From Candidatus Latescibacterota bacterium (lineage in GTDB: Bacteria; Latescibacterota; UBA2968; GCA-2709665), in contig OZ242358.1 in assembly GCA_965208835.1 (NCBI GenBank), forward strand, positions 3,328,001-3,392,000: a DNA stretch of 64,000 bases, given 5' to 3'. Each line of letters begins with the position of its first letter. Positions within the stretch are counted from its first letter, which is position 1. The notes under the pieces were generated by a model. It was not told the DNA's origin. It made no database searches and worked only from the letters and a program-made list of their open reading frames with translations. Positions 1 to 64,000 of this stretch are shown one piece after another. The position numbers and the translations under genes are program-made.

Positions 1-747
1 AAAACCCGCGAGCAGGGCGAATACCACAACCCAGAGAACCTGCACGGAGAGGATGTGGACGACCTCTGCGGCAGTGACGCGACCGATGTAGATCTCCAGC
101 GGCGCCTGGAACATGTACTGAAAGGGCAGCCACCGCGAAACATTGGCGATGAAGTCGGGAAACAGCCACATGGGCACCAATCTTCCCGACAGGGCAAAGA
201 CAAGGCTGGTCTTCACCGCACTCACGTCCCCAAAGTCGGTGACCCAGAATGCCGTCATGCCCACCAGGACGCTGAGCAGCCACAGGAGCAGGAAGCTCAG
301 CGCACAGCTCGGCAGAAACAGCAGCCACGCGCCCACGCCCGCCGGCAGCGGTGGAGCCACAAAAAGCAGCGAGATGGCCAGCAGGGGCAGGGCGAACTGC
401 GTAACGGCAGTCAGCGAACGCCCCACATCTTCGGTCATCCAGTACCAGACGAGGTTCACCGGCCGGATCAGATCGAGCGCGATCTCGCCTGCGCGGATCT
501 TTGCAAAGAGCACGTCGTCGATGCTGACAGTGAAGCATGCATTCATCAGCACGGCGACGACGGCATACGTGACCATCTGCGCCTCGGTGACCCCGGCGAC
601 CTCGTCGATCCCGCGATACGCGGTGCGCCAGAGGAAGACGGAGCCAAGGAGGAAGAACAGGTTCCGCCCGATTGACGACAGATACTCGAAGCGGTAGGCC
701 AGCGCGTTGAGCAGCTGGAGCTTCAGCAGGTAGGTGTAAAGGTGCAT
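1..747 (-). CDS. ABC-2 family transporter permease (partial, runs off the left edge)
   Basis: Hand translation from ATG at 747: MHLYTYLLKLQLLNALAYRFEYL...GEIALDLIRPVN; hydrophobic, with the AYR and G.IA..L.RP motifs of this family. Absent from the ORF track because no stop lies in the window. Confidence 0.85.
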   Translation of the reverse strand, partial: MHLYTYLLKLQLLNALAYRFEYLSSIGRNLFFLLGSVFLWRTAYRGIDEVAGVTEAQMVTYAVVAVLMNACFTVSIDDVLFAKIRAGEIALDLIRPVNLVWYWMTEDVGRSLTAVTQFALPLLAISLLFVAPPLPAGVGAWLLFLPSCALSFLLLWLLSVLVGMTAFWVTDFGDVSAVKTSLVFALSGRLVPMWLFPDFIANVSRWLPFQYMFQAPLEIYIGRVTAAEVVHILSVQVLWVVVFALLAGF

Positions 748-781
748 GGATGGTTGGATCCGGAAGCGTGATTCTCGACGT

Positions 782-1759
782 TCAATCTATGCCTTCGATT
801 GCAGCCTCGCCCATACGAATCGCCACATGCGGGAGAGCGAGTATACGGTCATCCAGTTCCCAGGTTTTCCGATTGGGCGATCTCGGGCTCCATTTCCGGT
901 GGAGTTGGCAGAGTCGTCTGGCATACCAGGCCGCGAAGATGAGAGGGAGTGCGGTACGTTCATCTTCGGAGGGAGGCCGTACTGAGAAATACCCCGCCAC
1001 GAATCGCTGCATTTCCTCATCTGAAAGCTGTCGACCCACGGTCCCGATCAGCCATTGAATCCGGACCATCACCACGTCCACAAGCGCCGGAGCGAAGTGA
1101 GCCGAATTGAAGTCGGTGAACCGAATCTCACCAGACGGGGAAGTGATCGTATTCCAACTTCGCACGTCTCCGCGACACAAGAGCCAACGGACGTTCATCC
1201 TGTTCGGCGTGTTGTTCAACTGTGCTCGAAGCCGGGTGACCGCATCTGCCGCGTTCGAGGAGAACGTCGTCCTCTTGCAATACTCGAGAGCGTCAGAGAT
1301 GTACAGCCGCGCATCCTTGACTTCTGAACTGAAGATTGGAAAGTCTTCGCTCGCATCGTGAACCCGTGCGAGAGCCTCCCCCACGTTGCCGAGCGTATCG
1401 ACGCGGTCTACAACCTCTCCTTCCAGGAAGCTCTCGACCGAAATCACCAGGTCTCGGACGGATTTGTACAGCCGACCATCCGTGGTTGGACGGATGTCGG
1501 GACACGGCGCGCCGCGCTCGGCAAGGTGTCGAACGAATTCCACAATGGTTTTGGGATGGACCGAACCGTCCCAACCCGGATTCACGCGGAACACAACGCG
1601 TCCGTCCCGCAGACTGTCACAAAAGAAGACGCACTGTGAGTTCGCCCTGCAGACGTTGTTCACTTCCAGATCCCAGAATCGCTTGCAGAGATCCACAATC
1701 TCTCGCTGGTCGGGCAGCGGGCCCGTTTCGTCTCTGGATCTGGGATATATGGCTTCCAT
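782..1759 (-). CDS. APH/homoserine kinase type II-like phosphotransferase
   Basis: LARVH, RGDVRSWN (Brenner-like motif) and TDFN; probable start MEAIYPR at 1759. Confidence 0.8.
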   Translation of the reverse strand: MEAIYPRSRDETGPLPDQREIVDLCKRFWDLEVNNVCRANSQCVFFCDSLRDGRVVFRVNPGWDGSVHPKTIVEFVRHLAERGAPCPDIRPTTDGRLYKSVRDLVISVESFLEGEVVDRVDTLGNVGEALARVHDASEDFPIFSSEVKDARLYISDALEYCKRTTFSSNAADAVTRLRAQLNNTPNRMNVRWLLCRGDVRSWNTITSPSGEIRFTDFNSAHFAPALVDVVMVRIQWLIGTVGRQLSDEEMQRFVAGYFSVRPPSEDERTALPLIFAAWYARRLCQLHRKWSPRSPNRKTWELDDRILALPHVAIRMGEAAIEGID

Positions 1760-1867
1760 TGGTTTTCCGGGCCCCGAACCGGCCTTAGCGGTTACGCGAA
1801 GGGCGTAAGATCTAAGCCGTGGGCGGACGTGTCTGTTGAAGCTGTGCACCCTGCTTCCGCCCGGATT

Positions 1868-2506
1868 TCAGGGAACAGTGTACTTTGTCCACCAGCGATG
1901 GTCCATAGTGAACTCCATGTTTTCTACCAGATGACCGATTACGGATTCCACCTGGGCTTCATCCGGTAGATTGTCGATAAGCCTGTAACTTTTGCCATTG
2001 GAACACTCGCGATCTGAGTAGAAGTCGATCCCGTCGTCGCTCTCGGGTGCCCGGTATCGTTGGCCCCCCATGACAACCACAGCTCCTCGATTGAGTTTTC
2101 TATGGACGTTCTCCACCAGCCGGTGCCAATCAGAATACGGCACATGATTGATGAAGTTGAAGTGAAATGCAGCATCGAAACGCTCATCTAGCTGGCCTAA
2201 ATCGAATGCGTCAGATTGGACGAACTCAACGTTTGCCTCGTTCACTAAACTACGTCCGATTGCCAGGATCTGTTCCGACGTGTCCGTTGCTAATACCGAT
2301 TCAGCTGTTTGCGCGATGTGTTTCGTCCATCGTCCCCCTCCAGCTGCGAGTTCCAGCACCTTGCGACCGGAAAATGCCCGCTGGATTTGTTCTATTGTGC
2401 GTCTCTGTTCGACGCTCAAGTTGGCTTCATCGTCAATGTAGGATTGCCGCACGACGTCCCAGTCGTAAGAATATTTGGCGCCGTCGTAGTATTCGATCAT
2501 CTGCAT
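1868..2506 (-). CDS. Class I SAM-dependent methyltransferase
   Basis: VLELAAGGGRWT motif I, then FVQSDAF and FDAAF; start uncertain. Confidence 0.85.
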   Translation of the reverse strand: MQMIEYYDGAKYSYDWDVVRQSYIDDEANLSVEQRRTIEQIQRAFSGRKVLELAAGGGRWTKHIAQTAESVLATDTSEQILAIGRSLVNEANVEFVQSDAFDLGQLDERFDAAFHFNFINHVPYSDWHRLVENVHRKLNRGAVVVMGGQRYRAPESDDGIDFYSDRECSNGKSYRLIDNLPDEAQVESVIGHLVENMEFTMDHRWWTKYTVP

Positions 2507-2860
2507 GCGGTACGAATGCGAATTCAGATCTACCAAGAACACCTCCGATCTATCCTGTCCCGCTTGGGAAAAACACTCACTGCCTGGACCAGGTATCGCA
2601 ATTTCAACTGAATTCTTCACCGCTTGTGGCCCATTCGTGAGGGGTGACCGCAGGCGCCGGGTAGCGGACGCCGTACAGAATCCCCACCGGACAGCCTTCC
2701 CAGTGGGGATCCAATTTGGTATCGGTCGACATTAGAGACCAACATCATTGGGCCGACTGACGGCCTTCCATTCAGTATCTGCAGCGCCGGGGAATCTCGC
2801 GCATGCGATTCCGTCTGTTTGTGGATAACCTCTCCTGGCTTTCGCACGTGGAGGCATTGG

Positions 2861-3944: not shown

Positions 3945-4135
3945 CCTTAATTTCACAAAAATCGCAACGTGGCATGGCGACGAAACTTTCCGAAACGGGC
4001 TGAAATGGTCGTTAGGAAGGACGCTTATTCAGTTCACGTCCAGCGACCTGGTGTATCCTGTAAATCCGCAGTTTAATCGCCTTTGTCTACGTGCATATTT
4101 CCGGTCTTACGTCCCCGAAAAATTTCGAATCAAGG
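3945..4135. mobile_element. MITE-A copy 1 (~190 bp, IS1380-like ends)
   Basis: CCTTAATT...GAATCAAGG imperfect TIRs, flanked by TTAG on both sides; homologous to five other copies. Confidence 0.85.
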
Positions 4136-4141
4136 TTAGAA

Positions 4142-4720
4142 TCAGATTTCCCAGTTCGACACGTATGATCGGCTCTTGAGTCGCTCCGCAAGCTCAATCA
4201 GTACAGATAGTGACTTGCTCAATCTGGCCGTCGTCGCGTCGTCGAGTTCGCCTCCCTCACCCCAATTGTCGCCGTGCGCATAGACATTGTAGGGGCTGAC
4301 AATGCACTTGAAATCCAGCATCAGGGAGGTTGCGAGAGAAGCAAACGCCATATAGCTGTGCGGATAGCTGGCCGAATTGACAAACATCACGACCTTGTCA
4401 TAGAAAGCGCCTCTGCGCGATCCGCCAGGTGGCGTCGAGCCCATATATTCGACGAATTTCTTGAGCTCCGCGCAACACGCCCAGTTGTAGACCGGACTGG
4501 CCAATATGACCGCATCGGCTGCCGTAATCATCTTGTGGCACGATTGGTAAACCTCGGATGAATAGATCTCGTCGTCGTCGAAATTCGGCGGATCAAGTTG
4601 CCGAAGATCGATGAAGTCAACAGAATGCCCCTTGTCCTCCAGGGCTATCCGACACAGGTCAGCAAGCACCCTGCTCCGACTGCGGGCATCGAGACTGCTG
4701 CTGACGACTGATATTTTCAT
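4142..4720 (-). CDS. NADPH-dependent FMN reductase
   Basis: MKISVVSSS...SRS and ADAVILASPVYNW...LKKFVE (flavodoxin fold). Confidence 0.88.
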   Translation of the reverse strand: MKISVVSSSLDARSRSRVLADLCRIALEDKGHSVDFIDLRQLDPPNFDDDEIYSSEVYQSCHKMITAADAVILASPVYNWACCAELKKFVEYMGSTPPGGSRRGAFYDKVVMFVNSASYPHSYMAFASLATSLMLDFKCIVSPYNVYAHGDNWGEGGELDDATTARLSKSLSVLIELAERLKSRSYVSNWEI

Positions 4721-4910
4721 CCAGGACTTCCTTCCTGATCGACCGGCATCGCCTGGCCTACGACATTCTTGCCACCGGCGAACCCACTTATCGTAGCGAA
4801 TGTGGGTTGCGCGAGGTCGCGGGAGCGAACGCGACCGGCGCTCAGGCGGATCCGTTATTCGGCGTGTTGTTCTACCTGAGCCAAACTCTTGGTGGGCAGG
4901 CTTCTTCCCC

Positions 4911-5702
4911 TTATGCAAAGGCCAGTTTGTACAGCCTCGCGGCTTGTTCGAAGGCCAGCCGCACGAATTCTTCCCTCTCCTTCACCCTCGAATGTTCTGT
5001 CAGAACTTCAAGTGTTACCGGCCCACCGTAGTCGGTGTTGCGGATACGCCCGCACAGATTCTCCCAGTCAATAAACCCATCGCCGGGAATGACATGGTCA
5101 ACATATTCCCGGACCCGGTCTGACAAGTGAAGTGCCAGAAGCCGATCTGACACATCCTCGAGCAATGTGAAGGGCCTGGGACCTCCCATTTGATCATGTG
5201 AAGAATCATAGCAAAACCCGAAAACATCACCTGGTAAATTGTCAAGAGCGCGTCGAACAAGATCCGTGGCGGGTCCGGGATGAACATTCTCCAGTGCTAA
5301 TCTAACTCCGTTGTCCCGAAGGATTGAAGTCAGAGCCTCGCAGGTGGCGAGCGCCGCCTCGAGGTGTTCATGCATTTCCCTGGACTCTAGGACGAATGGC
5401 CCGGCGTGCACCACAACCGTCGGTACATCGAGAAAGGCCGCGGATTCAACCGTGGCGGCCAGGGTCGAATGCGCCTGCGGAAGGTGAAGTGGTTTGCCGT
5501 GAATTGTGTCCATACGCAGGTTGCAGTCAAGCAGTAGATTCCGCAAACCGGATCTCCTCGCGTCTCCAAGGTAGCTCGAATGTGGCTCTTGTGCTCCAAG
5601 CGAAACATGCGTGAATCCTGCCTCAGCTATCAAGGGAAGCAAATCCTCAAGTGGACAGTCGTATGCAAAGGACGTAGCTATGGATGTCTTTGGTCGGCTC
5701 AT
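4911..5702 (-). CDS. Sugar phosphate isomerase/epimerase (AP endonuclease 2 TIM barrel)
   Basis: LALENV, CYDSSH, LHLSD, DHVIPGDGFIDW and TLEV motifs. Confidence 0.9.
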   Translation of the reverse strand: MSRPKTSIATSFAYDCPLEDLLPLIAEAGFTHVSLGAQEPHSSYLGDARRSGLRNLLLDCNLRMDTIHGKPLHLPQAHSTLAATVESAAFLDVPTVVVHAGPFVLESREMHEHLEAALATCEALTSILRDNGVRLALENVHPGPATDLVRRALDNLPGDVFGFCYDSSHDQMGGPRPFTLLEDVSDRLLALHLSDRVREYVDHVIPGDGFIDWENLCGRIRNTDYGGPVTLEVLTEHSRVKEREEFVRLAFEQAARLYKLAFA

Positions 5703-7871: not shown

Positions 7872-7957
7872 GTGTAACATCCTCGCCGTGCGCGAACTGC
7901 CGCAGGCAGTTGCAGCGAAAGTGCCTGAGCAGCGACCCGCGCCCGGTCGTGTTAGCC
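7872..7957 (-). other. Complete attC-like site
   Basis: Minus strand GGCTAAC-A-CG(A)CCGGGCGCG...CGCGCACGGCG-AGGAT-GTTACAC; paired arms with one extra base, 28 bp after a stop codon. Confidence 0.7.
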
Positions 7958-7985: not shown

Positions 7986-8579
7986 TCAGAAATGACTCGG
8001 ATTGTCGATGCGAAACGCAAGTTGTGTGATCTTGCCTTCCCCGAATACGCTCTCCTCAACTTTATCCAGCTGAGGAACTCTTGTGAAGCCGACCTTTGTG
8101 AATAGATTGATGCTGGGCTGATTATGTTCATATATACCTGCGACTATGTAATTCAATCCAAGTTCGCGGAAGATATAGTCCACGGAGAGACGAACGGCTT
8201 CCGTCCCGTATCCCTGGAATCTATATTGCTCGTAAATCCAAATCCCCAAGTCAGGCTCTCGGTGTGCAGGAGCTAGACTGGAACGACCAATGGGCGTTTG
8301 ATCCTGCAAATTGACAATCGTCGCATTGAACCGCTGTGGGGGTCTGTCAGGGTTCGTGAAATTTGCCAGGAAGTATTCGTACCCCTCATCCTCGTGTCTG
8401 GAGTTAAAGTTACGCTGTGTTTCCGAGTCCTTCCAAGTCTCGTAGAATGGCCTGTAGTCCTCATGTAAGAACTCCGCAAGGGCGACTTCCCTCCCTCGTC
8501 TGTAAAAGGATCGTGTCGAGACCGCTGAGCACATGGTCATCCTCAGCCCAGGAGCGTGTCGCAAAAGACGACGCTCCAC
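7986..8579 (-). CDS. GNAT N-acetyltransferase (RimJ/RimL-like)
   Basis: LGIWIYEQYRFQGYGTEA and HNQPSINLFTKVGF; true start probably downstream. Confidence 0.88.
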   Translation of the reverse strand: MERRLLRHAPGLRMTMCSAVSTRSFYRRGREVALAEFLHEDYRPFYETWKDSETQRNFNSRHEDEGYEYFLANFTNPDRPPQRFNATIVNLQDQTPIGRSSLAPAHREPDLGIWIYEQYRFQGYGTEAVRLSVDYIFRELGLNYIVAGIYEHNQPSINLFTKVGFTRVPQLDKVEESVFGEGKITQLAFRIDNPSHF

Positions 8580-8603
8580 GAATTTGCCCTGCTGACGATT
8601 GTT

Positions 8604-8732
8604 ACTTTCAGACCCCAGAATCGCTACAGAGATCCCTAATTTCTCGCTGGTCAGGCAGCGCGCCCGTTTCGTCTTTGGATCTGGGATATTGGGCTTTCAT
8701 TGATTCTCTCAGCCCGGAACCGGCCGTAACGG
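8604..8732 (-). pseudogene. 5' stump of a paralog of the 782-1759 phosphotransferase
   Basis: Nucleotide match to 1662-1791 (MKAQYPRSKDETGALPDQREIRDL vs MEAIYPRSRDETGPLPDQREIVDL), then frameshifted and cut off. Confidence 0.85.
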
Positions 8733-8740: not shown

Positions 8741-8831
8741 AGGTAACGTTTTGTGGATTAATGAACCGGCTTAGCCGGTCGGCGAAACCCAGGCCGCGTG
8801 AAGGCGGCGCAGCATTAACCCACTGTAATCG
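8741..8831 (-). other. attC-like site with mutated R'' box
   Basis: Minus strand CGATTAC-A-GTGGGTTAATG...CATTAATCCAC-AAAAC-GTTACCT. Confidence 0.65.
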
Positions 8832-8976
8832 GTCGTGGAAACTCCGTGAACTGGGCGCCTACAATAGCAGTGTGATTCAGTGAAAAATATCGCCCCGTTT
8901 GATGACTGAGCAGCAACCCTTCGCTCCCAAATTCTTGAGAAACAAACCGATCGTCACATCGTCCATACGTCTTCAT
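8815..8976 (-). pseudogene. Truncated PqqD/RRE-family gene
   Basis: MKTYGRCDDRFVSQEFGSEGLLLSHQTGRYFSLNHTA matches the PqqD N-terminal G.Y..LN.TA pattern; upstream RBS AAAGGGG; runs into the attC and stops at 53 aa. Confidence 0.6.
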
Positions 8977-42307: not shown

Positions 42308-42324
42308 TCAAATCTCTGCCTGGT

Positions 42325-53516: not shown

Positions 53517-54329
53517 TCAGGTTGGCTTCCTGCCCATGTAAAGGATGTGGCCCGCGCCATCCACCACGGAGGCGTCCGAGGCAGTCTCTATCACGAGGCT
53601 GAGCCATCGATCCCAGGCTTCTTTGTTTTGGGCAAGCGCGTTCGTTTCTTCCTCATATCCTGTGGAAAGGCCTTCGCATCCTGCCATCTCCACGGTTTCC
53701 AAACCGGCGGCTTCGGCAAGCTCACGGATTTCGTCCGAGCGGAAGAAATGGACAGGCACGCCATTTACCGGTGCGTTTCCGGTCCTCAACAGATCAGTGA
53801 ACAAAGGCCTACCGAGATCATCTTGAAAATGCCTCAGAAGGTGACGCAGGACGGCCAGATAGCCGCGAACTGAAACGCAAACCAATCCTCCTGGAGTAGC
53901 GGCATTCATCAGCTCTGTCAGTCCCTTCGCCCTTTCAGCAGGCTCATCCAGGTTTGAGAGCGGGTCAAGACACAGGACAGCATCGAATGAGTCGCTATCA
54001 ATTGCAGACAGATCCCTGACGTCGCCAACGACTGTGTCCAACAGTCTTTCTCTGACCTCCGCAGGTTCCGCCCGAATTTTCTCTACGGCGAGATCCAGAC
54101 ATCCCCTTGAGACATCCAGTAAGACGACCTGATACCCCCTTCGACACAGCTCTACGGTATAGCGTCCCGGACCTCCTCCCACATCCAGCACTCTGCCTTT
54201 CCCTGGGAGATGCCTGGCAAGCCGATCCATCGTGACGCTGAACTCCAGGCTCTGGTACGGGGCCTTCTCAAGGCGCTTCCATTCGCGTTCCGGGTTCTCG
54301 TCATAGATACTGGCTACTGATCTCATCAT
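53517..54329 (-). CDS. Class I SAM methyltransferase
   Basis: EWKRL, VLDVGGGPGRY, FDAVLCL. Confidence 0.92.
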   Translation of the reverse strand: MMRSVASIYDENPEREWKRLEKAPYQSLEFSVTMDRLARHLPGKGRVLDVGGGPGRYTVELCRRGYQVVLLDVSRGCLDLAVEKIRAEPAEVRERLLDTVVGDVRDLSAIDSDSFDAVLCLDPLSNLDEPAERAKGLTELMNAATPGGLVCVSVRGYLAVLRHLLRHFQDDLGRPLFTDLLRTGNAPVNGVPVHFFRSDEIRELAEAAGLETVEMAGCEGLSTGYEEETNALAQNKEAWDRWLSLVIETASDASVVDGAGHILYMGRKPT

Positions 54330-54407
54330 TGATCCGTAAAAATCAGGTGAACCGAGTGACCGAGTGGTTTCAGTGTCGCTTGCGCACTCGCCAACTTCCT
54401 ATCCGTT

Positions 54408-55382
54408 TCATTCCTCCCACGGCAGGAAACAGACTTTGACGGCCTGAAGGTTCTCCAGCAGGTCTATGCCTTCAGCGTAACGTTCGAGCGGCAGCTTGTG
54501 TGTGACCAGCGCGGCCAGGTCGAGCTTGCCGCGGAGAATGAGGTCGAGCGCATATTCGGCCGATTCGCGCGAGTGGCCCTTGTATCCGCACAGCCGCAGC
54601 CCGCGGTAATGCCGCGGGCTGAACGTGTAGTCTTCGCGCTGCACGCCGAACAGGGCCAGGACATCCTGAGTCCGGTCCATGAGAAACTCCACCGACGCCC
54701 TGGCGCCGACACAGTCCACGGCCGACTCGAGTTTTGGCCATTCCGGCCGCGCCGGGAATTTGCCCGACAAGTCGGCCCGCGGGTCGTAGCAACCGGCCGC
54801 GCCGAGACGCTCGGCCATGGCGCGGCGGTCGGATACGAAGTCGAACCCGTACACTTCACCGGCGCCCTCGGCTCTGGCCATCTGTAACGCCACCAGCCCC
54901 GCCGGACCCAGGCCGCAGACGCCGAAACAACGGCCCAGGATTGCGTCCATATCGCGCAGCATCCGGAAGCAGGCGCCTACGCACATAGCCAGCTCGAGTG
55001 GCGCCAGCGCCTCGTCGGGCAATTCTCCGGGGACGCGTATGACTCTTGCCGCGTCAATCGCGATGTATTGCGCGTAGCAACCCTGATGCCCCTCGCCGCT
55101 ATCGCGCCAGGCGCACACGCGGTCGCCTGCCTTCAAACCAGCCACACCTTCGCCAACAGCCTCGATGCGGCCGACGGCTTCGTGGCCGGGCCTGCCCGGC
55201 GTGAAGGGGTAGTGGAATGCATGGCCGACAAACATCGGTTCGTTGTGACGCAGGTGCAGGTCCCACTGCGGGCAAGTCGTGACCGCAGTGATACGAATCA
55301 GCACCTCGTCCGGACCGGGCTCGGGAACGGGGACATCGAGAATCTCGAACTCGCGCGGCGATGTGACCTGCAGGATCTTCAT
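54408..55382 (-). CDS. Zn-binding (MDR) dehydrogenase
   Basis: TCPQWD, PGHEAVG, GLGPAG. Confidence 0.9.
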   Translation of the reverse strand: MKILQVTSPREFEILDVPVPEPGPDEVLIRITAVTTCPQWDLHLRHNEPMFVGHAFHYPFTPGRPGHEAVGRIEAVGEGVAGLKAGDRVCAWRDSGEGHQGCYAQYIAIDAARVIRVPGELPDEALAPLELAMCVGACFRMLRDMDAILGRCFGVCGLGPAGLVALQMARAEGAGEVYGFDFVSDRRAMAERLGAAGCYDPRADLSGKFPARPEWPKLESAVDCVGARASVEFLMDRTQDVLALFGVQREDYTFSPRHYRGLRLCGYKGHSRESAEYALDLILRGKLDLAALVTHKLPLERYAEGIDLLENLQAVKVCFLPWEE

Positions 55383-55434
55383 TGTCCGCGCTCCCGGCAT
55401 GCCCATGAAGGTGCAGAAGCCTTCATCATTCCGC

Positions 55435-56382
55435 CTATCTTACGTGACCCTGAATTCGTCCGAAAAGTTCGCGCAGCTTCTCCACCCGCGGTGTATCGAG
55501 GTGCGGCGGGTCAACCACCGGCAGGTTCTCGCGAAACCGTTCCGGCCTGCGCGTCCCGACACAGCAAGTGCTCACGTCCTGCGCGAGCACGAAACGTAAC
55601 GCCGCCGCGGGCACACTGTAAGGCTTCAGGAAATCAAACAGGTCCGGATCCGTGTACGGCGGCTGGGACGGCAGATAGCCGGCCGCGACATGCCGCCGCA
55701 CGCACTCCAGCGCCGCCGGCACACTGACCAGACCGGACTCCCGGCTCGCCTGGTTCAGCGGCATCATCACCGCCGTGCCGACGTCGTGCCGGGCACACAG
55801 CGGCAGTACCGATTCCACCGCGTTTTGCAGCAGAAAATTGATCGTGAGCATGACCACGTCCAGGGCGCCGGTGGGAACCGCGCGCTTCAGGATCTCGTGT
55901 GTTCCGTCAACCGTGGAGAGCTCGCTGATACCGATGAAACGGACCTTGCCCTGCTCACGAAGCCTGGACATGGCCTCGTAGCAGCCATCGTTCATAAAAC
56001 GGTCCAGAGATTCGAGCGTGCGTATGCCGTGGCCGAGAAAAATATCGAGACGATCACGGCGCAAGCGGCGCAGGCTCTCCTCGGCAGAGGAGGTCAATGC
56101 CGCCGCTGAACCCGTGTATGCCGCATCGCCGCCCCAGCCATCGTAAGGCTGATACTTGGTCTCCACAATGATATGGTCGTGGCCCCGCAACGCTTCGCCC
56201 AAGGCGCTCTCGCTGTCACCGTTGCCGTAGCCGGCGGCGGTGTCGACGAAGTTGACGCCGCTCTCGATTGCTGCGTGTACTGTGGCAATGAACTTCGCCC
56301 GGTCCTGCGACGCGCCCCACGCTGCACCGTAACTGAGTTCCGAGACCTGCAGTTCTGTTCTTCCCAGACGGCGATACCGCAT
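55435..56382 (-). CDS. Aldo/keto reductase
   Basis: MRYRRLGRT, DTAAGYG, SLRRL, GKVRFIGIS. Confidence 0.93.
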   Translation of the reverse strand: MRYRRLGRTELQVSELSYGAAWGASQDRAKFIATVHAAIESGVNFVDTAAGYGNGDSESALGEALRGHDHIIVETKYQPYDGWGGDAAYTGSAAALTSSAEESLRRLRRDRLDIFLGHGIRTLESLDRFMNDGCYEAMSRLREQGKVRFIGISELSTVDGTHEILKRAVPTGALDVVMLTINFLLQNAVESVLPLCARHDVGTAVMMPLNQASRESGLVSVPAALECVRRHVAAGYLPSQPPYTDPDLFDFLKPYSVPAAALRFVLAQDVSTCCVGTRRPERFRENLPVVDPPHLDTPRVEKLRELFGRIQGHVR

Positions 56383-56447
56383 GATCAGTTCCTTTGTTCC
56401 GCTTCTGGTTGGCGGGATCGGGGTCGCCGCAGCCAGGTCCCCCGGCC

Positions 56448-57431
56448 TCATTCCCGTTCGAATTGACCCGAACGAACCATCGCATGGATCAGGTTCAGGA
56501 TCAGCCGGCCGGCCGTATGTCCGCCCAGGCCGTGCAGATCGTGTTGCGGAACGAACTCAACCATGTCCATTCCCACCACGCGCCCCTTCTGCGGCAGGCC
56601 GCGGAGCAGGTCCGCTGCCTCGGCAAATGTCAGACCACCCGGCTCCGGGTGGCTCACCGCTGGACTGATGGACGGGTCCAGCCCATCAAAATCCAGCGTA
56701 ATAAAATAGTTCGCGTCGTCCGGAATCCGCTCCAGCACCGCCGCAATCCCCTGCTCGTGCACCTCCCGCTCGGAAATCAGCACATTGCCTGTTGCCAGCG
56801 CATCCTCTACGTCGTCAATGCGGCCGCTACCCGTCCCGCGCAGCCCCACCTGGACAATCTTCGCTACCCAATCCATCTCCGAAACCCGTCGCATCGGACT
56901 GCTGTACCCTTCCCGCACCCCGTCCACCTCGTCTCTGAAGTCCAGATGCTGGTCAATCTGTACGACAACAATCGGCCCGAACTCGCGGTACGCCCGAATC
57001 ACGGGAATGGGAACCGCGTCGTCTCCGCCAAACACAATCGGCACCGCGCCCCGGGAGAGGATCGTCTGTACCGCCTCCGTGGCCCGATCCACTGCGCCCT
57101 TCAGATCCATCGGATCGCCCGGTACATCGCCGCAGTCCACAATCCGGATCGCCCGACCGTCCAGCAGTGGTCCGCCAAAATCGAAACTGTAAAACGGCCC
57201 CATTGCATTGCGGTACCGCAACGACTTCTCGCGCAAATATCCGGGCGCGTCGAATGTCCACGACTGTCCCATCTCGTACGGAATGCCGTAAGGCACACCC
57301 AGAATCGCAATCTCCGCCTCCAGCGCCGACACATTCGTCTCCACCGGCGCCTGGATAAAGGAGATGAACCCGCCGCTCGCCGGTTTCCCGAGGGTCCGGT
57401 ACGACGGAATCGCGGTCAAAGGCAACGCCAT
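56448..57431 (-). CDS. Agmatinase/ureohydrolase family protein
   Basis: GGDD, DQHLD, SSPMRR, DFDGLDP, PGGL. Confidence 0.9.
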   Translation of the reverse strand: MALPLTAIPSYRTLGKPASGGFISFIQAPVETNVSALEAEIAILGVPYGIPYEMGQSWTFDAPGYLREKSLRYRNAMGPFYSFDFGGPLLDGRAIRIVDCGDVPGDPMDLKGAVDRATEAVQTILSRGAVPIVFGGDDAVPIPVIRAYREFGPIVVVQIDQHLDFRDEVDGVREGYSSPMRRVSEMDWVAKIVQVGLRGTGSGRIDDVEDALATGNVLISEREVHEQGIAAVLERIPDDANYFITLDFDGLDPSISPAVSHPEPGGLTFAEAADLLRGLPQKGRVVGMDMVEFVPQHDLHGLGGHTAGRLILNLIHAMVRSGQFERE

Positions 57432-57641
57432 CGCGTTATCCTCCTGAACATAAGGTATAGTTTCAAGTAGCCATGCATGCGTTTTCTGATATTTCAGCTA
57501 AATAACGTATTAGCCTGGAAAATCGATAAGTCGTAGCTTATATGGGTCTGTGCCTCCCCCTTTCGTGAAGCAACGAACGTGCAGAGATTCCGCGTAAGCC
57601 TTCAGATTTTCCCCCGATGTCTCGATCTATTGAGCAATCAT

Positions 57642-57832
57642 CCTCAATCCGAAAAAAACAGCAACGCGGCGACGCGATAAAACCCTCCGGAACGGGGTGT
57701 TATGGACGTATAGAAGGACGTTTCTTCCCTACACGTCCAGTGACCTGGTGTATCCTGGTAATCCGCCGTCTAATCACCTTTATTTACAAGCATATATTCG
57801 TATTTTCGTCCCCGAAGGCATACGAATCAAGG
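57642..57832. mobile_element. MITE-A copy 5 (tandem, left)
   Basis: Homology to the other copies; shares TTAG with copy 6; left duplication lost. Confidence 0.88.
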
Positions 57833-57836
57833 TTAG

Positions 57837-58025
57837 CCGCAATTCCGCAAAAGCCGCAACGCGGCACCGCGACAAAACCCTTCGAAACAGGCCGAAATCG
57901 TCGTCATAAAGGACATTTTTTAATTCACGTACAGTGTCCTGGTGTATCCCGGTAATCAGTAGTCTAATCGCCTTTTTAACCGACACATATTCGAATTAAC
58001 GTCCTCGAAAAATGAGGAATCAAGG
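57837..58025. mobile_element. MITE-A copy 6 (tandem, right)
   Basis: TTAG on both sides; the right TTAG includes the stop codon of the adjacent gene (minus strand GCCTAA|C). Confidence 0.85.
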
Positions 58026-58709
58026 TTAGGCTTTGGTTGCAACGATCGCCAGCAGAGATGGGAGCGCGTCACCATCCAATTCGGCAACTGATTCGAGCCG
58101 CAAGTCAGCAGCGAGCAATTTGTTGAAGAGTTCGGCAAGAGGAACGTGCCGGACACCCACCTTCGACCGAATGCCCTCACCCAATCCAGGACCTTCGAAA
58201 ACTCGTGCTGTTTCCCGGTAACCCGGATGGATCCTGGCAATTCCCGTGTCTCTCTCGATGGTCGCAAATGGTCCCAGAAAACAGGGATGTGTGCCCAGGA
58301 TAACGAAACGCCCGTGACGATCCAGGACGCGGTGTGCTTCCGAGAAGAATGGCCCTACATCATCGAAATCAGTAAGTGTCAATACCGACACGACGCGTCG
58401 AAACGTGGCTGACGAGAAAGGCAGACTAAACGCATTGGCTTGGACAATCCTCGGAGAGCGATCACTTGCCAGTCGAAGCTGGTCCGCTGAAAGGTCGACT
58501 CCGATTACGGACCAGCCAAGCGATTGCAGTAGCTGGAGATGCACACCTGTTCCGCAACCAATGTCCACACAGAGTCCGGAGCCGGGTCCAACCAAACGCG
58601 ATAGATGAGCCGGGATGTTCTCGTAGAAAGGCATCTTGAGATATTCATCGTACCACGTCGCCCAGCCGTCGTATCGGGCACCATCTTGGTTGGAATTCAA
58701 GGAAGGCAT
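58026..58709 (-). CDS. Class I SAM methyltransferase
   Basis: DIGCGTG, GVDLSADQL, HPCF. Confidence 0.92.
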   Translation of the reverse strand: MPSLNSNQDGARYDGWATWYDEYLKMPFYENIPAHLSRLVGPGSGLCVDIGCGTGVHLQLLQSLGWSVIGVDLSADQLRLASDRSPRIVQANAFSLPFSSATFRRVVSVLTLTDFDDVGPFFSEAHRVLDRHGRFVILGTHPCFLGPFATIERDTGIARIHPGYRETARVFEGPGLGEGIRSKVGVRHVPLAELFNKLLAADLRLESVAELDGDALPSLLAIVATKA

Positions 58710-58772
58710 AGTCTCCTGCTGATTCTGGAAGGCTTCCGGTGTTTCGCACCCTTCTGAAAGCTTCTATCCCGT

Positions 58773-58886
58773 AACTACGGTATTACCGAACAGTTACGGC
58801 AATGGGTTCCCGATCCGAAGATCTGCGAACGTTAGGGAACACTCCACGATGAAGCTTGCAGCCCGAGCATGTTCATGAATGCTTCC
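58773..58886. repeat. 114-bp direct repeat, copy 1
   Basis: Matches 60261-60374; begins AACTACGGTATTACCGAACAG. Confidence 0.9.
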
Positions 58887-58904
58887 TGCAGTCCCAGCAA
58901 TGCC

Positions 58905-59010
58905 GCCTAACGGTTCTTGGCTTTACGACCTGGGCCAGTCCCAAAGGCCCATGGGCCCGAAGGGCCGAGCGGCAGATGCCCCGAGACGTAAAGCCAGTGT
59001 CGTGTTAGCC
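58905..59010 (-). other. Complete attC site
   Basis: Minus strand GGCTAAC-ACGACAC-TGGCTTTACG...CGTAAAGCCA-AGAACC-GTTAGGC; perfect GTTRRRY. Confidence 0.82.
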
Positions 59011-59089
59011 GTCGTTTTTAATTCGTATCCGTCTATTGTCGGGGCCTTGTGTATCGTAATGTAGCCGCTAAATCATTCAGACAAACTTC

Positions 59090-60010
59090 TCACTCACCAA
59101 AGAACGGGTACGGTTCGCCGGCTTCCACCAGCCTTTGTACCAGACTCGAGTACTTCAACACCTCCGTCAGCCGGGCACGCCAATGCGGTGCGTAGAAGGC
59201 AACGAATTCCTGGAAGAACGCTCGCGCATCCTCACTGACGCCATCGAAGTATTGCGGCAGCAAAAACCAAGGCTGGTCACTGGCGTAGTTCAGCCCCCGC
59301 TGGCGCATCGTGAACTCTGCCGCGGCCCGTTTCTTTACCGAGATCATCAACGAGCGCCTGAGCTTGTCGGTGTGATAGCGGCCCCGATGAATGCACAACT
59401 GGGTAAACAGCACCGCGTCACCGGGTTCCTGGTGGAGACGAACGGCGCCTGGCATATCGTTCGAGCGGTTGTGGATCCCATCATCGGCGACGCAGATCGC
59501 GTGCTCTTCGGGGGAGTAGTCACGAAGGTGAGACCCCGGCACCACTTCGAGATCGTCCGTAGGGACCAATGCGATTTGCATCTGCAACCCTGCTCCGGTC
59601 TCCGGTATCCGGGATACGTCTGCTTCTGCACCGATCTTGTCCTTGTGCCAAAATCCGTCCTGGCTTTCTCCGGTCGGATTAAAGTAGAGACTGCTCAAGG
59701 CGAAGAGGAATTCTTCATCCAGGGCTGCGCTAAGCGATTCGACAACTTGGGGCGACCCCATGGCATTGAGCAGAAAGGCAAGATCGTCGGGGTGATCGCG
59801 GTGATATTCCGGGTCGTTCAGGTGCCTCATGTAATTGGCCTGGGGCCCCACCGGTGGATTGTCACAGCGAGGAGCGCGCCGCCACTGTTCCAGCACTCGC
59901 TCACAGATCTCGCGCAGCCTTTCTGTCGTCGCTGCGTCGAACAAACCGCGCACCACGGCGTAAGAGTGTTGGCGTAGCTGCCCAGGGCACGGTTCAGTAG
60001 AAATGTCCAT
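59090..60010 (-). CDS. Phytanoyl-CoA dioxygenase (PhyH) family Fe/2OG enzyme
   Basis: WHKD, VVPGSH, PGDAVLF, IHRG. Confidence 0.88.
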   Translation of the reverse strand: MDISTEPCPGQLRQHSYAVVRGLFDAATTERLREICERVLEQWRRAPRCDNPPVGPQANYMRHLNDPEYHRDHPDDLAFLLNAMGSPQVVESLSAALDEEFLFALSSLYFNPTGESQDGFWHKDKIGAEADVSRIPETGAGLQMQIALVPTDDLEVVPGSHLRDYSPEEHAICVADDGIHNRSNDMPGAVRLHQEPGDAVLFTQLCIHRGRYHTDKLRRSLMISVKKRAAAEFTMRQRGLNYASDQPWFLLPQYFDGVSEDARAFFQEFVAFYAPHWRARLTEVLKYSSLVQRLVEAGEPYPFFGE

Positions 60011-60089
60011 TATATCCTCTTGTGTTGCTGTAAGAATTGCGTCGTAATTGGACATTAAAAGTACGGACAGGCTGTCTCGTACTGTCTAA

Positions 60090-60220
60090 CCCTGATTCCT
60101 CAGAAATATACGGTCCAGATCATAGCTAAGTCGGGTGAAAACAGATATTTCTACTATCAAAATGCCCGTGTTCTTGCGTATATTTCCAGGTTAACGTAGC
60201 TCAGATATGCTAAATCAAGG
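60090..60220. mobile_element. MITE-B (131 bp, IS1380-like ends)
   Basis: CCCTGATT...AATCAAGG with CTAA duplication; the empty site reads GTCTAAC. Confidence 0.75.
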
Positions 60221-60260
60221 CTAACTACGTATGGAAATCTATGCTCTATTAATTGCGGCC

Positions 60261-60374
60261 AACTACGGTATTACCGAACAGTTACGGAAATGGGTACCTG
60301 ATCCGAAGATCTGCGAACGATCGGGAACATTCCACACTGAAGCTTGTAGCCCGAGCATGTTCAGGAATGCTTCC
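60261..60374. repeat. 114-bp direct repeat, copy 2
   Basis: Matches 58773-58886. Confidence 0.9.
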
Positions 60375-60594
60375 CATTCTATATCATCCGAACAAGCAGC
60401 GATGTTCCTGACTCTTGTAGACTGTGGATTATCCGCTTCAAAATTGAAACTTCCGTACTCATTTCCGAAATATCTGACATCTCTGGCGCTGTAAATTCGA
60501 CTACAAACTGTCGTCCCTAAGCCTCAATAGACAGTATTCTTAGAGTGGCCGAAACACAAAGCACCCACAATCGGAACTCTGTCTTCCTTCGGAA

Positions 60595-61551
60595 CTAACC
60601 AGATACGACTCGATAGGTCGAGTCGAAATGACTGCTGCATCTTCCGTGTTTCAATGACTGTTCAAAGATTCTATGAAACGCTCCTCGAATACATCTTGAC
60701 CGCTCGTTTTCCGTTTCAGCGTTGCCCCACCTGAACTCAATGGATATGCTTGGATCCAAATTGGCTTTGTACCTATGAATTGCGTCAACAGTATTCTCAT
60801 GACCATTCTCCTGGACGTATTTCAAACAACCGTGGAAATCCAGGACATCGCGCATTCCTGAGCCTCCAGGTTCTTGATTGAGTTCTACCAGTGTTTGCGC
60901 GGAAACGCTGCCTCTCGTGGCTCCGGTATCGTTGTTTATGAAGTCAGCGAATTCCTCCAATTTTTGAGATGACCAACCTCTTGAAAAATGTGGCACACTG
61001 ATGATTTCATGACAATTGCCCTGTATTGCGACCGTTTCTATCGCAAAATTACCGAACTCTTGAACTTCACGAGAAAAGTAATCCGCAGAATCCTTCCCGT
61101 GGGTAATGATTAAAGTGGGCTTGATTTCAGTCAGAAGGAAATGGAAGACTTCCGTAACCTTTTCTTCGATCTGAAGGTCGGTGTAATGTTCGGTGGGTAC
61201 CGAGTAGATATTCGTCTCCAATATTACATAATCTCCGACTAAATCAGCAAGTTTGTTCAAATTGCGTCGAGTAGCACCAACACTGAGACGTCTCTTTTTC
61301 CCTGGTCTTGGCGGTCGATTCTTTCTTTCATTCCTGTAAGCTTCAAACCAGGAGACTTTGTCAAATCCTGAACAGTCACTCCAATACCTCCAGAAGCCGT
61401 TCTCCATCACGGTGGCTGGATTTAGACCTACAACGAAAATCTTGCAATCGTAGGGTGAGCCCTGACACACAAAGGGTCTACAATTCTCAGGTAGAATCGC
61501 GCTAAGCTTTCTCCGAAATTCAGCATGCTTAGTCATTTGAGATGCCGCCAC
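60595..61551 (-). CDS. Uracil-DNA-glycosylase-superfamily protein with a C-terminal extension
   Basis: VVGLNPA, ETNI, PTLIITHG, PHFS; AT-rich. Confidence 0.65.
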   Translation of the reverse strand: MAASQMTKHAEFRRKLSAILPENCRPFVCQGSPYDCKIFVVGLNPATVMENGFWRYWSDCSGFDKVSWFEAYRNERKNRPPRPGKKRRLSVGATRRNLNKLADLVGDYVILETNIYSVPTEHYTDLQIEEKVTEVFHFLLTEIKPTLIITHGKDSADYFSREVQEFGNFAIETVAIQGNCHEIISVPHFSRGWSSQKLEEFADFINNDTGATRGSVSAQTLVELNQEPGGSGMRDVLDFHGCLKYVQENGHENTVDAIHRYKANLDPSISIEFRWGNAETENERSRCIRGAFHRIFEQSLKHGRCSSHFDSTYRVVSG

Positions 61552-61648
61552 CTATTTCCTCGCATTTTGATTTGCCAGTTCCGTCCCTCACGCGAATGTA
61601 AGGCGACAAGCTCAGGATAAACTCCGCGACGCAGCGCAAGTGGGCGCG

Positions 61649-62557
61649 TTACCCGCCGTTTCTCTCAAGCTTGCTTGCAAGAGCTTCAAGCTCATTACTG
61701 GCATCGTACAGCGAATGTGGGTGGCCAGATCGTTTTCCCGTGATGAGCTTACTTTTCAAGAGCCTTGAGTGCAAATCATCACAGATGAAATCCACGAGGG
61801 CCTCCTGTTCCCTCCTGCTCTTACTCTTGGTAAGCTCCTCCAGTGCTTCTACAACCTCTCCAGTATCTGGCAACTTTCTAAATTCCGCTGACAGCCACTT
61901 CCAATAAGGAGCATAGTCTTTCGAGAGTAGCAAATACACCGTCATTGTCCGTTCAATTAAGTTGCCCAGGCACGCCGCAATAGCGATTGGGTCCTTTCGC
62001 TTCGCCGTTCTAGAGAAGTTGTACTGTCCATGGTGCCACACTTGGAACGTCTCATCCCTTATCCGGTTGACCCATGCGTCCGTCGGGTAGTACCAGAATG
62101 CCTTCCTGCGAGCTGAAAACTCCCCGAGCGGATCGTGAAAGATCGTCATGTGCCGTAGCATGTATAGATGAACTGCCTTTGTTCGTTTTAGCCATTCCTT
62201 GCCTGACTTTGGCGGCGTGGCGCATCCAATCTCCCGAGAGAACCACCGGTTTATCGAGTCCACAGAGTAGACGTTCGGCGCCGGATGCCAGCGCACACCA
62301 AGCCAGGTTCTGGGAGCATCTGCTTGAATCGAGCGTCGAAGCTTCCTGCCAAAACGTCGCATATCCTCCCCAGTCAGAACAATCTCGAAGCCCGGTCCCC
62401 ACTCGTGGTCTCGAGAAAGCTCGTCATCGTTTCCGAGACTTTGGGAGCGTCCAAACATGAATGCGGCGACGCGTTCGGAGAGCTGCGGAAACTCCGACCG
62501 TAGGTAGGGAAGGCCCCATTGGTTGAAGTACCGGTGAGCAATCTGTAGACCGTTCAA
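61649..62557 (-). CDS. DUF4037-domain protein
   Basis: DDELSRDHEWGPG, FHDPLG, YYP, APYWKW; probable TTG start at 62557. Confidence 0.85.
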   Translation of the reverse strand: MNGLQIAHRYFNQWGLPYLRSEFPQLSERVAAFMFGRSQSLGNDDELSRDHEWGPGFEIVLTGEDMRRFGRKLRRSIQADAPRTWLGVRWHPAPNVYSVDSINRWFSREIGCATPPKSGKEWLKRTKAVHLYMLRHMTIFHDPLGEFSARRKAFWYYPTDAWVNRIRDETFQVWHHGQYNFSRTAKRKDPIAIAACLGNLIERTMTVYLLLSKDYAPYWKWLSAEFRKLPDTGEVVEALEELTKSKSRREQEALVDFICDDLHSRLLKSKLITGKRSGHPHSLYDASNELEALASKLERNGG

Positions 62558-62590
62558 AGCAAGACTCCGGCTATCCTTAGGAGAAATGGC

Positions 62591-62749
62591 GAGTGACGTT
62601 CTCGGGCCTTGCGAACCTTGCGGGCCCGTCAGGGCTGGCGCGCCGGGTGCCGTCATGCTTTCCCAACCAGAGCAACCGGTGTGACAGAGGCAAGGATGCC
62701 GAAGGCCGAGGGAGCGTAAGCGACGGTAGCGCAAGGCCGCGTGTTACAT
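62591..62749 (-). other. Long attC-like site with R' mutated (GTC)
   Basis: Minus strand ATGTAAC-ACGC-GGCCTTGCG...CGCAAGGCC-CGAGAAC-GTCACTC. Confidence 0.65.
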
Positions 62750-62863
62750 GCTGGCGGCGCCCCCTTCACGCCGAAGCCTTTCAGGAGGCAGACGTAAAGT
62801 GCACACCATAAACAATGGCTTGCTGGTTTCGATTCGTTTCTCAGGTAAACTCGCCTCCGCCAT

Positions 62864-63463
62864 TTAGAGAGGGTTCGCTTTAATGAGTTGGAACAGGTCA
62901 CCTTTCCTGATGCGCTCCGATGTCAAGATTTGAATCAACTTTGCCAAAACGTCAGTCCGGTCGAAGCGTTTGAATTCCGGGTAAAGGTCGATGCGCCAAC
63001 GGAGATAGCCCTCCAGTTGTTTCAGATCTGGGAAGATCTGTTTGGCCGTAAGGAACTCTGCCTGTAAGGCGCGGCGATGTGCGTAGGCATGCGAGCGCGA
63101 GGCCAACTTGTGCTGGATTTCCACATGCTCGTGCACTGCACACAAATGCGCGTACTGCCTGTTGAATTCGATCAGGTCTGACGGGACATAAATCGTCCCT
63201 TCCTCGTCGTAGAAGACAAAATCGGGTGTCTCGCCTTCATACCGAAACACCGCATAGGAGAGGGGAATATCAGCCACGACTGCCTGCTCGGTCCGAATGA
63301 CCTTCTGCTTAATCGCGTCGAGCGTCTTCGTAGCTTCAGGATGTGGCAGTCGAAGCAATTGGTTCGCCTCTTGGGTGAGGTTAGCCCAAGCTCTTGGGTT
63401 TTGTACACAATCAGCGGGGGTTGGGTGGCTGGATATCCTCCGCTGCTCGCGTGGAACGTTCAA
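62864..63463 (-). CDS. Hypothetical protein with an HExxE...AH motif
   Basis: AVHEHVE...HAYAHRRALQAE. Confidence 0.7.
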   Translation of the reverse strand: MNVPREQRRISSHPTPADCVQNPRAWANLTQEANQLLRLPHPEATKTLDAIKQKVIRTEQAVVADIPLSYAVFRYEGETPDFVFYDEEGTIYVPSDLIEFNRQYAHLCAVHEHVEIQHKLASRSHAYAHRRALQAEFLTAKQIFPDLKQLEGYLRWRIDLYPEFKRFDRTDVLAKLIQILTSERIRKGDLFQLIKANPL

Positions 63464-63676
63464 GCACCCCCAAACCTGCTGCTAGCGCTGCGCTTGCCCC
63501 TGGCGGTTTTGGTCAAGCAATCGCCGTGACAGCAAAGTACAGGTATCGCGGAGGCGCGGAGGCGCGGAAACGCCGGAGCCGGTGGTGTCGTTGTTAGCCG
63601 CCATTACCGGGGGGTACGCCTCCCCTTGGATTCTCGCTCCCAGCGAGACTATAGCACGCACCCCCACACTCGGAAC

Positions 63677-64000
63677 TCAATCCGCTCTTACCAGAACGCG
63701 GTTCTCAAATCCACCCATCGTGCTTCCACCAACGGTCACCCTTTCCAGTGATCCGCTTCCGTCTGGCTCGAAAATGAGATCGCAGCAACTTGCTTCAATG
63801 GAGAATGCGTTCTGACCCTTTGGGATGAGCTTGGACTTACGTAGCCAGAGATTGTAGACAAAAAGGCTGCCATCCTCCAGCTTGACTTCGTGCTTCGTGG
63901 TGCCATATCTAGGCGCGCCCTCCACGGTCTCATAAGTCCCCACAAACGACCGAAGATAGCTTTCAGGCTTCGGATCATCCCCTTTGAAAGGCACCGATAG
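63677..64000 (-). CDS. C-terminus of a protein running off the right edge (DUF3471-like)
   Basis: LRSFVGTYE...V.LEDGSL...KLIP...NAF pattern. Confidence 0.5.
   Translation of the reverse strand, partial: LSVPFKGDDPKPESYLRSFVGTYETVEGAPRYGTTKHEVKLEDGSLFVYNLWLRKSKLIPKGQNAFSIEASCCDLIFEPDGSGSLERVTVGGSTMGGFENRVLVRAD

Follow-up and report, generated by a model that had tools for sequence, protein, structure and literature searches.

The 64,000 nucleotides analysed here (the window; positions 3,328,001 to 3,392,000 of contig OZ242358.1, Candidatus Latescibacterota) are fairly likely to be an internal stretch of a chromosomal integron-type gene-cassette array that is at least 64 kb long, old and mostly decayed, carried by an uncultured and probably sponge-associated bacterium. 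In this array a cassette consists of one or few open reading frames (ORFs) followed by a site, 83-159 nt long, that resembles the attC recombination sites of integrons. An earlier reading of the letters without database searches (the sequence-only reading) had described about 60 unrelated genes, nearly all on the minus strand and with abrupt shifts in composition, and greedy ORF calling bore this out: 58 genes were called on the minus strand versus 3 on the plus strand, with gene G+C contents from 0.41 to 0.67 and steps of up to ~0.2 between adjacent genes.

The attC-like sites form a lineage-specific family in which the 5' box is xxxTAAC-A, the stem arms covary and the 3' end is conserved as RAGAAC-G|TTAC. 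Read on the gene-sense strand, the order is R'' (xxxTAAC followed by A, near or overlapping the stop codon), a short unpaired spacer, L'', a GC-rich middle, L', the spacer RAGAAC and R' (G|TTACAC). The consensus of 12 aligned sites is ACGGCGGnTAAC-A, a variable GC-rich middle, GGTTCG, L' and RAGAAC-G|TTACACGCAA. By analogy with the integron paradigm, as summarised in the introduction of PMC4889954, each site would fold as a single-stranded hairpin and would be cut by an IntI-type tyrosine recombinase between G and TT, cassettes leaving as circles and reinserting.

The boundaries of the cassettes were revealed by the two closest public relatives, both metagenome-assembled genomes, found by scanning genome contigs with the right-end ORF of the window as the query: OZ220733.1 (L001), labelled Candidatus Latescibacterota, and JAPPNU010000041.1 (L002), labelled Gemmatimonadota, in which this ORF has 96% and 95% amino-acid identity, respectively. 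Comparison by blastn revealed that both carry co-oriented arrays that have cassettes in common with the window (PhyH, methyltransferase, a 327-aa AAA/STAND-like protein, APH(3') and NUDIX) and differ in their order and content. The NUDIX cassette lies at 41 kb in the window versus ~10 kb from the array start in L002, a block encoding arginase, aldo-keto reductase and alcohol dehydrogenase is common except that L002 has no arginase, and at the origin-proximal end L001 has two extra cassettes relative to L002. Three independent comparisons between genomes all break at G|TT of R', which is the crossover position of integron cassettes. The attC of a 169-aa gene (L001:16752-16851, L002:9474-9573) is identical through ...AAGACG and then leads into different cassettes, the two copies being alike up to ...GGCAAGACG and continuing with TTTCACGAAAAC... 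in one genome and, in the other, with the APH(3') cassette. This cassette has the same starting point in the window (ACG|TTATG), L001 and L002, each time preceded by a different and unrelated upstream sequence. Finally, the homologous right arms at L001:8204 and L002:13430 diverge immediately after AACG|TTA.

The arms of each site also belong together. In the 13 two-armed sites of the window and L001, the mean duplex energy was -12.4 kcal/mol for a site's own arms versus -8.7 for swapped arms; none of 20000 permutations reached the observed mean, the own partner ranked first in 6 of the 13, and the complementarity is held by eight different L sequences. TAAC is present in 12 of these 13 sites, and R' begins with GTT in 11 and with GTC in 2. 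Profiles of the single arms were searched with nhmmer on both strands of the window, L001 and L002 (102.9 kb). At E<=1 they gave 19 left-arm and 18 right-arm matches, all on the gene-sense strand and none antisense, including 7 left and 7 right sites from outside the building set; iterating the profiles left the family stable, with no enlargement. A scan anchored on TAAC and GTY with a 9-bp stem and at most one mismatch returned three minus-strand non-coding matches (59007, 62746 and 7954), and the same scan on shuffled sequences returned ~3.85 for the whole window, or ~0.6 expected in its non-coding 15%. In the non-coding sequence (9371 nt) TAACA occurs 18 times on the minus strand versus 3 on the plus strand, and TAACAC 9 versus 0 times. 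The TAAC-type motif of the sequence-only reading is therefore strand-biased in its loose form, without the leading Y, but YTAACAC is at chance level (2 seen, 6.0 expected); GTTAGVC was not enriched either (13 seen, 12.1 expected). Rfam gave no match at gathering thresholds in the window and none at E<=1 in 51700-58200. An inverted-repeat search for a second hairpin family gave 79 pairs; of the 25 that were listed, only the 59010 site lies in non-coding sequence.

The individual sites are collected in Table 1. Five had been proposed as complete, and four of them are two-armed (7957-7872, 8838-8741, 59010-58905 and 62749-62591), but 53249-53186 has no L' arm, which is present in its 95-nt homologue L001:6292-6386; the APH(3') cassette has its 5' boundary at the G|TT of 53249-53186, at position 53192. 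Two of the confirmed sites have deviant boxes: the R'' triplet of 8838-8741 is GAC rather than AAC, and R' of 62749-62591 has GTC rather than GTT. All eleven positions proposed as half-sites carry the TAAC word, but 63593, 47516 and 23960 turned out to belong to two-armed sites and 22816 to a weakly two-armed one. The half-site at 18362 does consist of a left arm only, those at 4854 and 40924 belong to another repeat, 56 nt long (family D16), and 12024, 36046, 50964 and 61648 hold the short word and nothing more. That TAA is itself the stop codon at two of these positions agrees with the ORF coordinates, which put TAA stops at 22817 and 61649; in the site 22737-22822 the TAA of R'' doubles as the stop codon of gene 22817-23860. 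Between genomes, the homologue of the 63451-63599 site sits behind a different gene in L001 (2946-3091), and the junction corresponding to 59010-58905 is without the site in both L001 and L002. We also observed that four different cassettes have a conserved module of ~100 nt that follows the stop codon and precedes the TAACAC box, the similarity stopping right at TAACAC.

The inverted toxin-antitoxin cassette noticed by the sequence-only reading is present as a higA gene and a 5'-truncated higB directly after the attC 47522-47440. Only the C-terminal half of the model is matched by the HigB-like stump, and there is neither a 5' part nor an attC belonging to this cassette. The same attC-like site directly follows an ankyrin-repeat gene (47662-49950, 762 aa), whose product is a eukaryote-like repeat protein in cassette form.

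In both relatives the array starts next to a gene with a peptidoglycan-binding domain (PG_binding_1) and a divergent gene for a family-B DNA polymerase (polB), followed by a repeat that we call E2. This start lies upstream of the right-end gene by ~8 kb in L001 and by 2.3 kb in L002, and the flank is conserved (L001 1-1942 corresponds to L002 3368-5310, with 89% identity). The two contigs bear different phylum labels, yet their nucleotide identity is 89% in this flank and 94-96% in the cassettes; either the region has been transferred, or one of the labels or bins is wrong. E2, which is 115-160 nt long, lies ahead of several cassettes, and in both relatives it comes first after the conserved flank. 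It contains a GTTCCC...GGGAAC stem around a GATC-TTCG-GATC hairpin, plus a CCGTAACT...AGTTACGG hairpin. At one junction in L001 the truncated 3' element of a cassette joins E2 at ...GCG|TCCCGAACG, where full-length E2 reads GTG|TTCCCGAACG. E2 is thus an attI candidate, and could be an attI, a promoter or an RNA leader; its full copies inside the array of the window argue against a simple attI role.

Three other repeats, E1, E3 and E4, resemble miniature inverted-repeat transposable elements (MITEs) in having terminal inverted repeats, no ORF, a length of 131-195 nt and duplications of CTAA, TTAA or TTAG. We take them to be MITEs that have invaded the array, probably of IS5-like transposons with 4-bp YTAR duplications. 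For E3 and E4 the target duplication is shown by empty sites in both L001 and L002. E1, with six copies in the window and five in the relatives, has identical 4-nt flanks in 7 of the 11 copies and a terminal repeat in common with E3. Unlike IS5-like MITEs, all 11 E1 copies are in gene orientation, and neither the window nor the loci of the relatives revealed a gene for a parent transposase. The predicted fold of E1 is multi-stemmed, with strand-specific G-U pairs and covariation in 1 of 42 pairs, and it had no Rfam match; it includes a CCCCG...CGGAGGG hairpin followed by a T run, which a simple terminator scan did not flag. E1 was also considered as a long attC and rejected, since its flanks are direct rather than inverted repeats and behave as target duplications. 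Given these 4-bp duplications, the TAAC at 52361, 58028, 53444 and 4143 is a target duplication plus the first base of the terminal repeat, not an R'' box, and at 53444/53249 the TTAA of an R'' box seems to have been the insertion target of E1. One methyltransferase gene ends in TAA in the window (58026-58033) and in TGA in L001 (~5998), and the adjoining E1 flanks match each genome's own version (CTAA/CTAA in the window versus CTGA/CTGA in L001), so a single ancestral insertion with a later point mutation does not explain them.

Table 1. Features of the window and of the related loci L001 and L002 (window coordinates unless a relative is named)
Feature	Position	Strand	Details
Whole array segment	1-64000	minus	58 co-oriented genes, 57 junctions
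Two-armed attC-like site, 149 nt	63451-63599	minus	R'' GGCTAAC, L'' CACCACC / L' GGGGGTG, R' GTTCCAC
Two-armed attC-like site, 159 nt	62591-62749	minus	R'' ATGTAAC, L stem GGCCTTGCG/CGCAAGGCC with 9/9 pairs, R' GTCACTC
Best attC-like hairpin, 106 nt	58905-59010	minus	R'' GGCTAAC, 10-bp L stem, R' GTTAGGC
Shortened attC, 64 nt	53186-53249	minus	left arm and R' GTTATGT kept, L' lost
attC-like site, 83 nt, right behind the 762-aa ankyrin-repeat gene	47440-47522	minus	R'' AAATAAC, R' GTTACGA
Degenerate copy of the 47522 left arm	38073-38179	minus	AAC mutated to ACC; repeat family D8, 83% identity
attC-like site, 91 nt	23876-23966	minus	both arms matched by profiles built without it
Weak two-armed site	22737-22822	minus	left arm E 0.043, right arm E 0.45; R' GTC
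Left-arm-only attC remnant	18300-18368	minus	related to 23966-23876; repeat family D15
attC-like site	8741-8838	minus	degenerate R'' CCACGAC, L stem GTGGGTTAA/TTAATCCAC, R' GTTACCT
attC-like site, 86 nt	7872-7957	minus	R'' GGCTAAC, L stem CCGGGCGCG/CGCGCACGG with 8/9 pairs, R' GTTACAC
~100-nt module before TAACAC	50977-51048, 62753-62824; L001 11129-11228, 13033-13109
MITE E1, two tandem copies of ~195 nt	57642-58033 (57642-57840, 57837-58033)	minus	sharing one flank
Other E1 copies, window	3945-4143, 42117-42315, 51840-52038, 53246-53444
E1 copies, relatives	L001 5998, 8903, 14839; L002 7132, 13123
MITE E3, 131 nt	60089-60224	minus	terminal inverted repeat CCTTGATT, target duplication TTAG
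MITE E4, 160 nt	52198-52362	minus	terminal inverted repeat CAGYCCGTTG, target duplication CTAA; inserted exactly at the APH(3') stop codon
E2 leader repeat	60221-60377; second copy 58772-58886	minus	repeat family D7; partial copy at 14058-14101; core G|TTCCCGAAC
E2 copies, relatives	L001 1826-1952, 4116-4221; L002 5193-5350
APH(3')-like cassette	52359-53192	minus	from G|TT to the stop codon; in all three genomes, with three different upstream elements
Inverted higA-like antitoxin gene	47088-47402	plus	HTH_3, E 1.2e-9
HigB-like toxin gene stump, ahead of higA	46935-47075	plus	PF05015 positions 46-91 of 91, E 1.1e-4, under the Pfam cut-off
Inverted methyltransferase gene (S-adenosylmethionine-dependent)	50149-50898	plus	sole full-length enzyme gene on the plus strand

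Several results weigh against the idea that this is an integron-type array. The 57 junctions were surveyed in a census that leaves out the 4854 site (inside an over-long ORF call, 4142-4918) and the ACC-mutated copy at 38105. Just 8 of the 57 have a two-armed site, 2 a left arm only, 7 the TAAC(A) word only, 5 MITEs only and 35 nothing recognisable, and 20 of these 35 have gaps below 60 nt or overlapping genes, as in operons. That the sites are mostly broken, as the sequence-only reading had it, is correct but understates the decay, given the junctions that bear no trace of a site. Pairing at the TAACA sites (n=18) was modestly better than at control AAC sites (n=786; Mann-Whitney p 0.0046), with an empirical p <0.05 in just 4 of the 18. 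A strict scan for generic attC geometry (spacers of 4-8 nt, 8/8 pairs) returned 3 minus-strand and 4 plus-strand matches versus 0-4 in 10 shuffles; it missed real sites because their 5' spacers span 1-7 nt and two R' boxes are GTC. RNAalifold found no consensus pairs on the MAFFT alignment of 12 sites. As MAFFT failed to bring the arms into register in both the 12-site and the 13-site alignments (A12 and A13), we used sequence profiles for each arm instead of a covariance model. In minimum free energy folds, enforcing the AAC/GTT pairing favoured over-long partners, and the arm-duplex tests were used in their place. The strand choice of canonical attCs is determined by extrahelical bases, which are not clearly identifiable here: the duplex folds leave extra unpaired bases in the 5' arm of some sites (7957-7872), and 59010-58905 and 62749-62591 pair perfectly. 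Moreover, where L001 and L002 differ by an insertion or deletion, the flanks are in several cases long direct repeats (E1 or E2) and not attCs. These differences point to homologous recombination between repeats as a second shuffling route, and suggest that it now also reshuffles the array.

The missing integrase also counts against an integron. The sequence-only reading expected attI and intI beyond the right edge, an expectation for which the array heads of L001 and L002 give no support: among their 40 flank and array ORFs, covering 1.9 and 5.3 kb upstream of the heads, none matched a tyrosine-recombinase family, and when the window, L001 and L002 were searched by tblastn with IntI1 of plasmid R100, the best E was 0.75. 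No recombinase family was matched by the 64 ORFs of the window or by 20 further small ORFs. The integrase negative covers the window and the heads of L001 and L002, and does not extend to the sequence right of the window or to other parts of its genome. As the origin of the array is without an integrase in the relatives, the recombinase, if acting, would be encoded elsewhere or has been lost.

An array of this kind has a name. In the definition given by Cury et al. 2016 (PMC4889954), a CALIN (an attC cluster without an integron-integrase) has two or more attC sites on the same strand, separated by less than 4 kb, and neither intI nor a pseudogene of it in the vicinity. Our own site calls give three such groups, 63599/62749/59010, 23966/22822 and 8838/7957, so that the 4-kb rule splits the window into clusters at 63.6/62.7/59.0, 23.9/22.8 and 8.8/7.9 kb and leaves the site at 47.5 kb on its own. 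The label that best suits the visible state is a CALIN, or a sedentary array with its integrase elsewhere. The earlier proposal of a very large sedentary integron or CALIN thus keeps its integron-type, CALIN-like character but loses the integrase at the head, to judge from the relatives. Intact two-armed sites are densest near the head, with 5 in the 20 kb of L001 and 3 in the window's final 5 kb, and thin to ~1 per 10 kb deeper in the array. With most sites decayed or deleted, most of the array is probably frozen into multi-gene blocks.

An unlikely alternative is an ordinary island of accessory genes on the leading strand, in which the repeats would resemble repetitive extragenic palindromes or terminators and the variability would come from homologous recombination and MITEs, never from integron recombination. 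Much of what was just described fits it: the many junctions without a site, the absence of an integrase nearby in the window, L001 and L002, and the three MITE families with proven target duplications. Likewise, the L001/L002 indels of APH plus GNAT and of a 543-aa gene are flanked by E2 and E1 direct repeats, and the plus-strand GC skew is negative in 53 of 64 one-kb windows, which places the genes on the G-rich, leading-type strand. Homologous recombination, however, would not put three independent breaks at the same step, G|TT, of the 3' box. Nor does such an island account for arms that covary although their sequences differ from site to site, or for what else is integron-like here, namely the order of the boxes, sites placed behind stop codons and a toxin-antitoxin cassette in inverted orientation; and none of the attC-like sites within 51000-64000 was flagged by the simple terminator scan.

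Two further explanations assign the sites to something other than an integron. It is quite improbable that we are dealing with a new kind of cassette system in which E2 (core G|TTCCCGAAC) is the integration site at a fixed locus beside polB, served by a recombinase that is not an IntI or is encoded far away. Such a system would agree with E2 standing directly after the conserved flank in both relatives, with the L001 junction at ...GCG|TCCCGAACG and with the lack of intI at the origin in L001 and L002. However, full E2 copies also lie within the array of the window (60377-60221 and 58886-58772) and so are not confined to the origin; several cassettes are preceded by a duplicate of its right part, which does not follow from a simple attI model; the sites look like ordinary attCs, and nothing ties polB or the gene with the peptidoglycan-binding domain to recombination. 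We give still less credence to the idea that all TAAC boxes are target duplications of IS5-like MITEs and that the hairpins are MITE ends rather than recombination sites. It does account for the TAAC at 52361, 58028, 53444 and 4143, and it draws on the CTAA, TTAA or TTAG flanks of E1, E3 and E4, on the empty sites of E3 and E4 and on the identical flanks of 7 of the 11 E1 copies. In contrast, the boxes on either side of the two-armed sites are inverted (TAAC...GTTA), not direct, no empty/filled pair with a duplication was seen for any of these sites, and their downstream partner changes at G|TT.

The integron-type array that we favour can be set against known systems. In sedentary chromosomal integrons, such as the super-integron of Vibrio cholerae, the array is headed by intI and attI, and nearly every junction has a highly uniform attC site. 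The window resembles them in its long co-oriented array of tens of small unrelated accessory genes, its imperfectly palindromic AAC...GTT sites, its inverted toxin-antitoxin cassette, its fixed chromosomal position and the differences between close relatives. Unlike them, it has no integrase at the head in two relatives and a two-armed site at only 8 of 57 junctions, the length of the sites varies (83-159 nt) and many units of cassette size are blocks of several genes. The sections of PMC4889954 on CALINs describe them as having particularly low attC similarity and as a possible step between gene acquisition and stabilisation; they give an average of 5 attC sites, with several tens in some. 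Compared with that average CALIN, the array in the window is longer than 64 kb and, by the 4-kb rule, falls into three small clusters and a lone site.

At the level of the single site, we read the aadA1 attC from plasmid R100 (NC_002134.1). It runs R''-5 nt-L''...L'-6 nt-R', with the stop codon 3 nt upstream, and has the same order as the sites in the window: R'' (xxCTAAC), an A-rich spacer, L''...L', a spacer and R' (GTTAxxx). The spacer before R' is also similar (TCAAGC|GTTAGAT in aadA1 versus CAAGAAC|GTTACAC in the window family). The aadA1 site differs in its length of 60 nt versus 83-159 nt, and its extra L'' base, an extrahelical G, is not evident here. The arm profiles found no match on this attC, a point against the integron-type reading; the kinship with known attCs is therefore architectural and not at the level of sequence.

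If an integron-type origin is true, such arrays reach an uncultured, probably sponge-associated lineage. The list of phyla with integrons in one review (PMC8618304) includes Gemmatimonadota, and Latescibacterota does not appear in that list; in the full-text literature, supplements aside, we found no paper on integrons in sponge symbionts or Latescibacterota. The array would be as long as large sedentary integrons, yet with a head that has no integrase in the relatives, and would offer a natural picture of decay, with intact sites thinning away from the head. The ankyrin-repeat gene that directly ends in an attC suggests that eukaryote-like repeat proteins could be swapped as cassettes. A wider picture, which we offer tentatively and consider possible rather than probable, is that of a giant array with its own attC family, served in trans or without an integrase, fixed next to polB in sponge-associated Latescibacterota, storing candidate host-interaction genes (ankyrin, Kelch) as cassettes and now reshuffled mainly by MITEs and repeat-mediated recombination. 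The MITEs also carry a warning, in that a target duplication at a stop codon can look like the R'' box of an attC.

Searches against Pfam and NCBIfam revealed that the window contains assorted small accessory enzymes. It encodes five APH-family kinases, seven S-adenosylmethionine-dependent methyltransferases and five GNAT acetyltransferases, as well as NUDIX, HAD, MBL-fold, arginase, aldo-keto reductase and alcohol dehydrogenase enzymes; there are three ankyrin-repeat proteins and one Kelch propeller, and several ORFs have no family. The APH(3')-like gene (52359-53153) scored 187.8 bits, just under the NCBIfam cut-off of 205. PADLOC, run on 32 proteins, returned ankyrin-repeat matches and weak matches and nothing else. 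Two paralogues of 437 and 475 aa (36664-37977 and 39257-40684), with ~72-75% nucleotide identity in blocks and G+C contents of 0.63 and 0.67, well above those of their neighbours, had no match in Pfam, NCBIfam or PADLOC. The 622-aa ORF at 24761-26629 joins a sigma-70 domain of the extracytoplasmic function type (regions 2 and 4) to a GNAT domain.

Some repeats lie at the starts of genes. A 5' region of ~190 nt, which includes a possible short upstream ORF, is shared with 75-84% identity between 1601-1791 and 8543-8732, ahead of two unrelated genes, one for an APH-family kinase and one for a GNAT. Two-copy repeats with 91-92% identity extend over the starts of unrelated genes at 22634-22685/27387-27438 and 38953-39085/50076-50208, and one copy of the latter pair adjoins the inverted methyltransferase gene.

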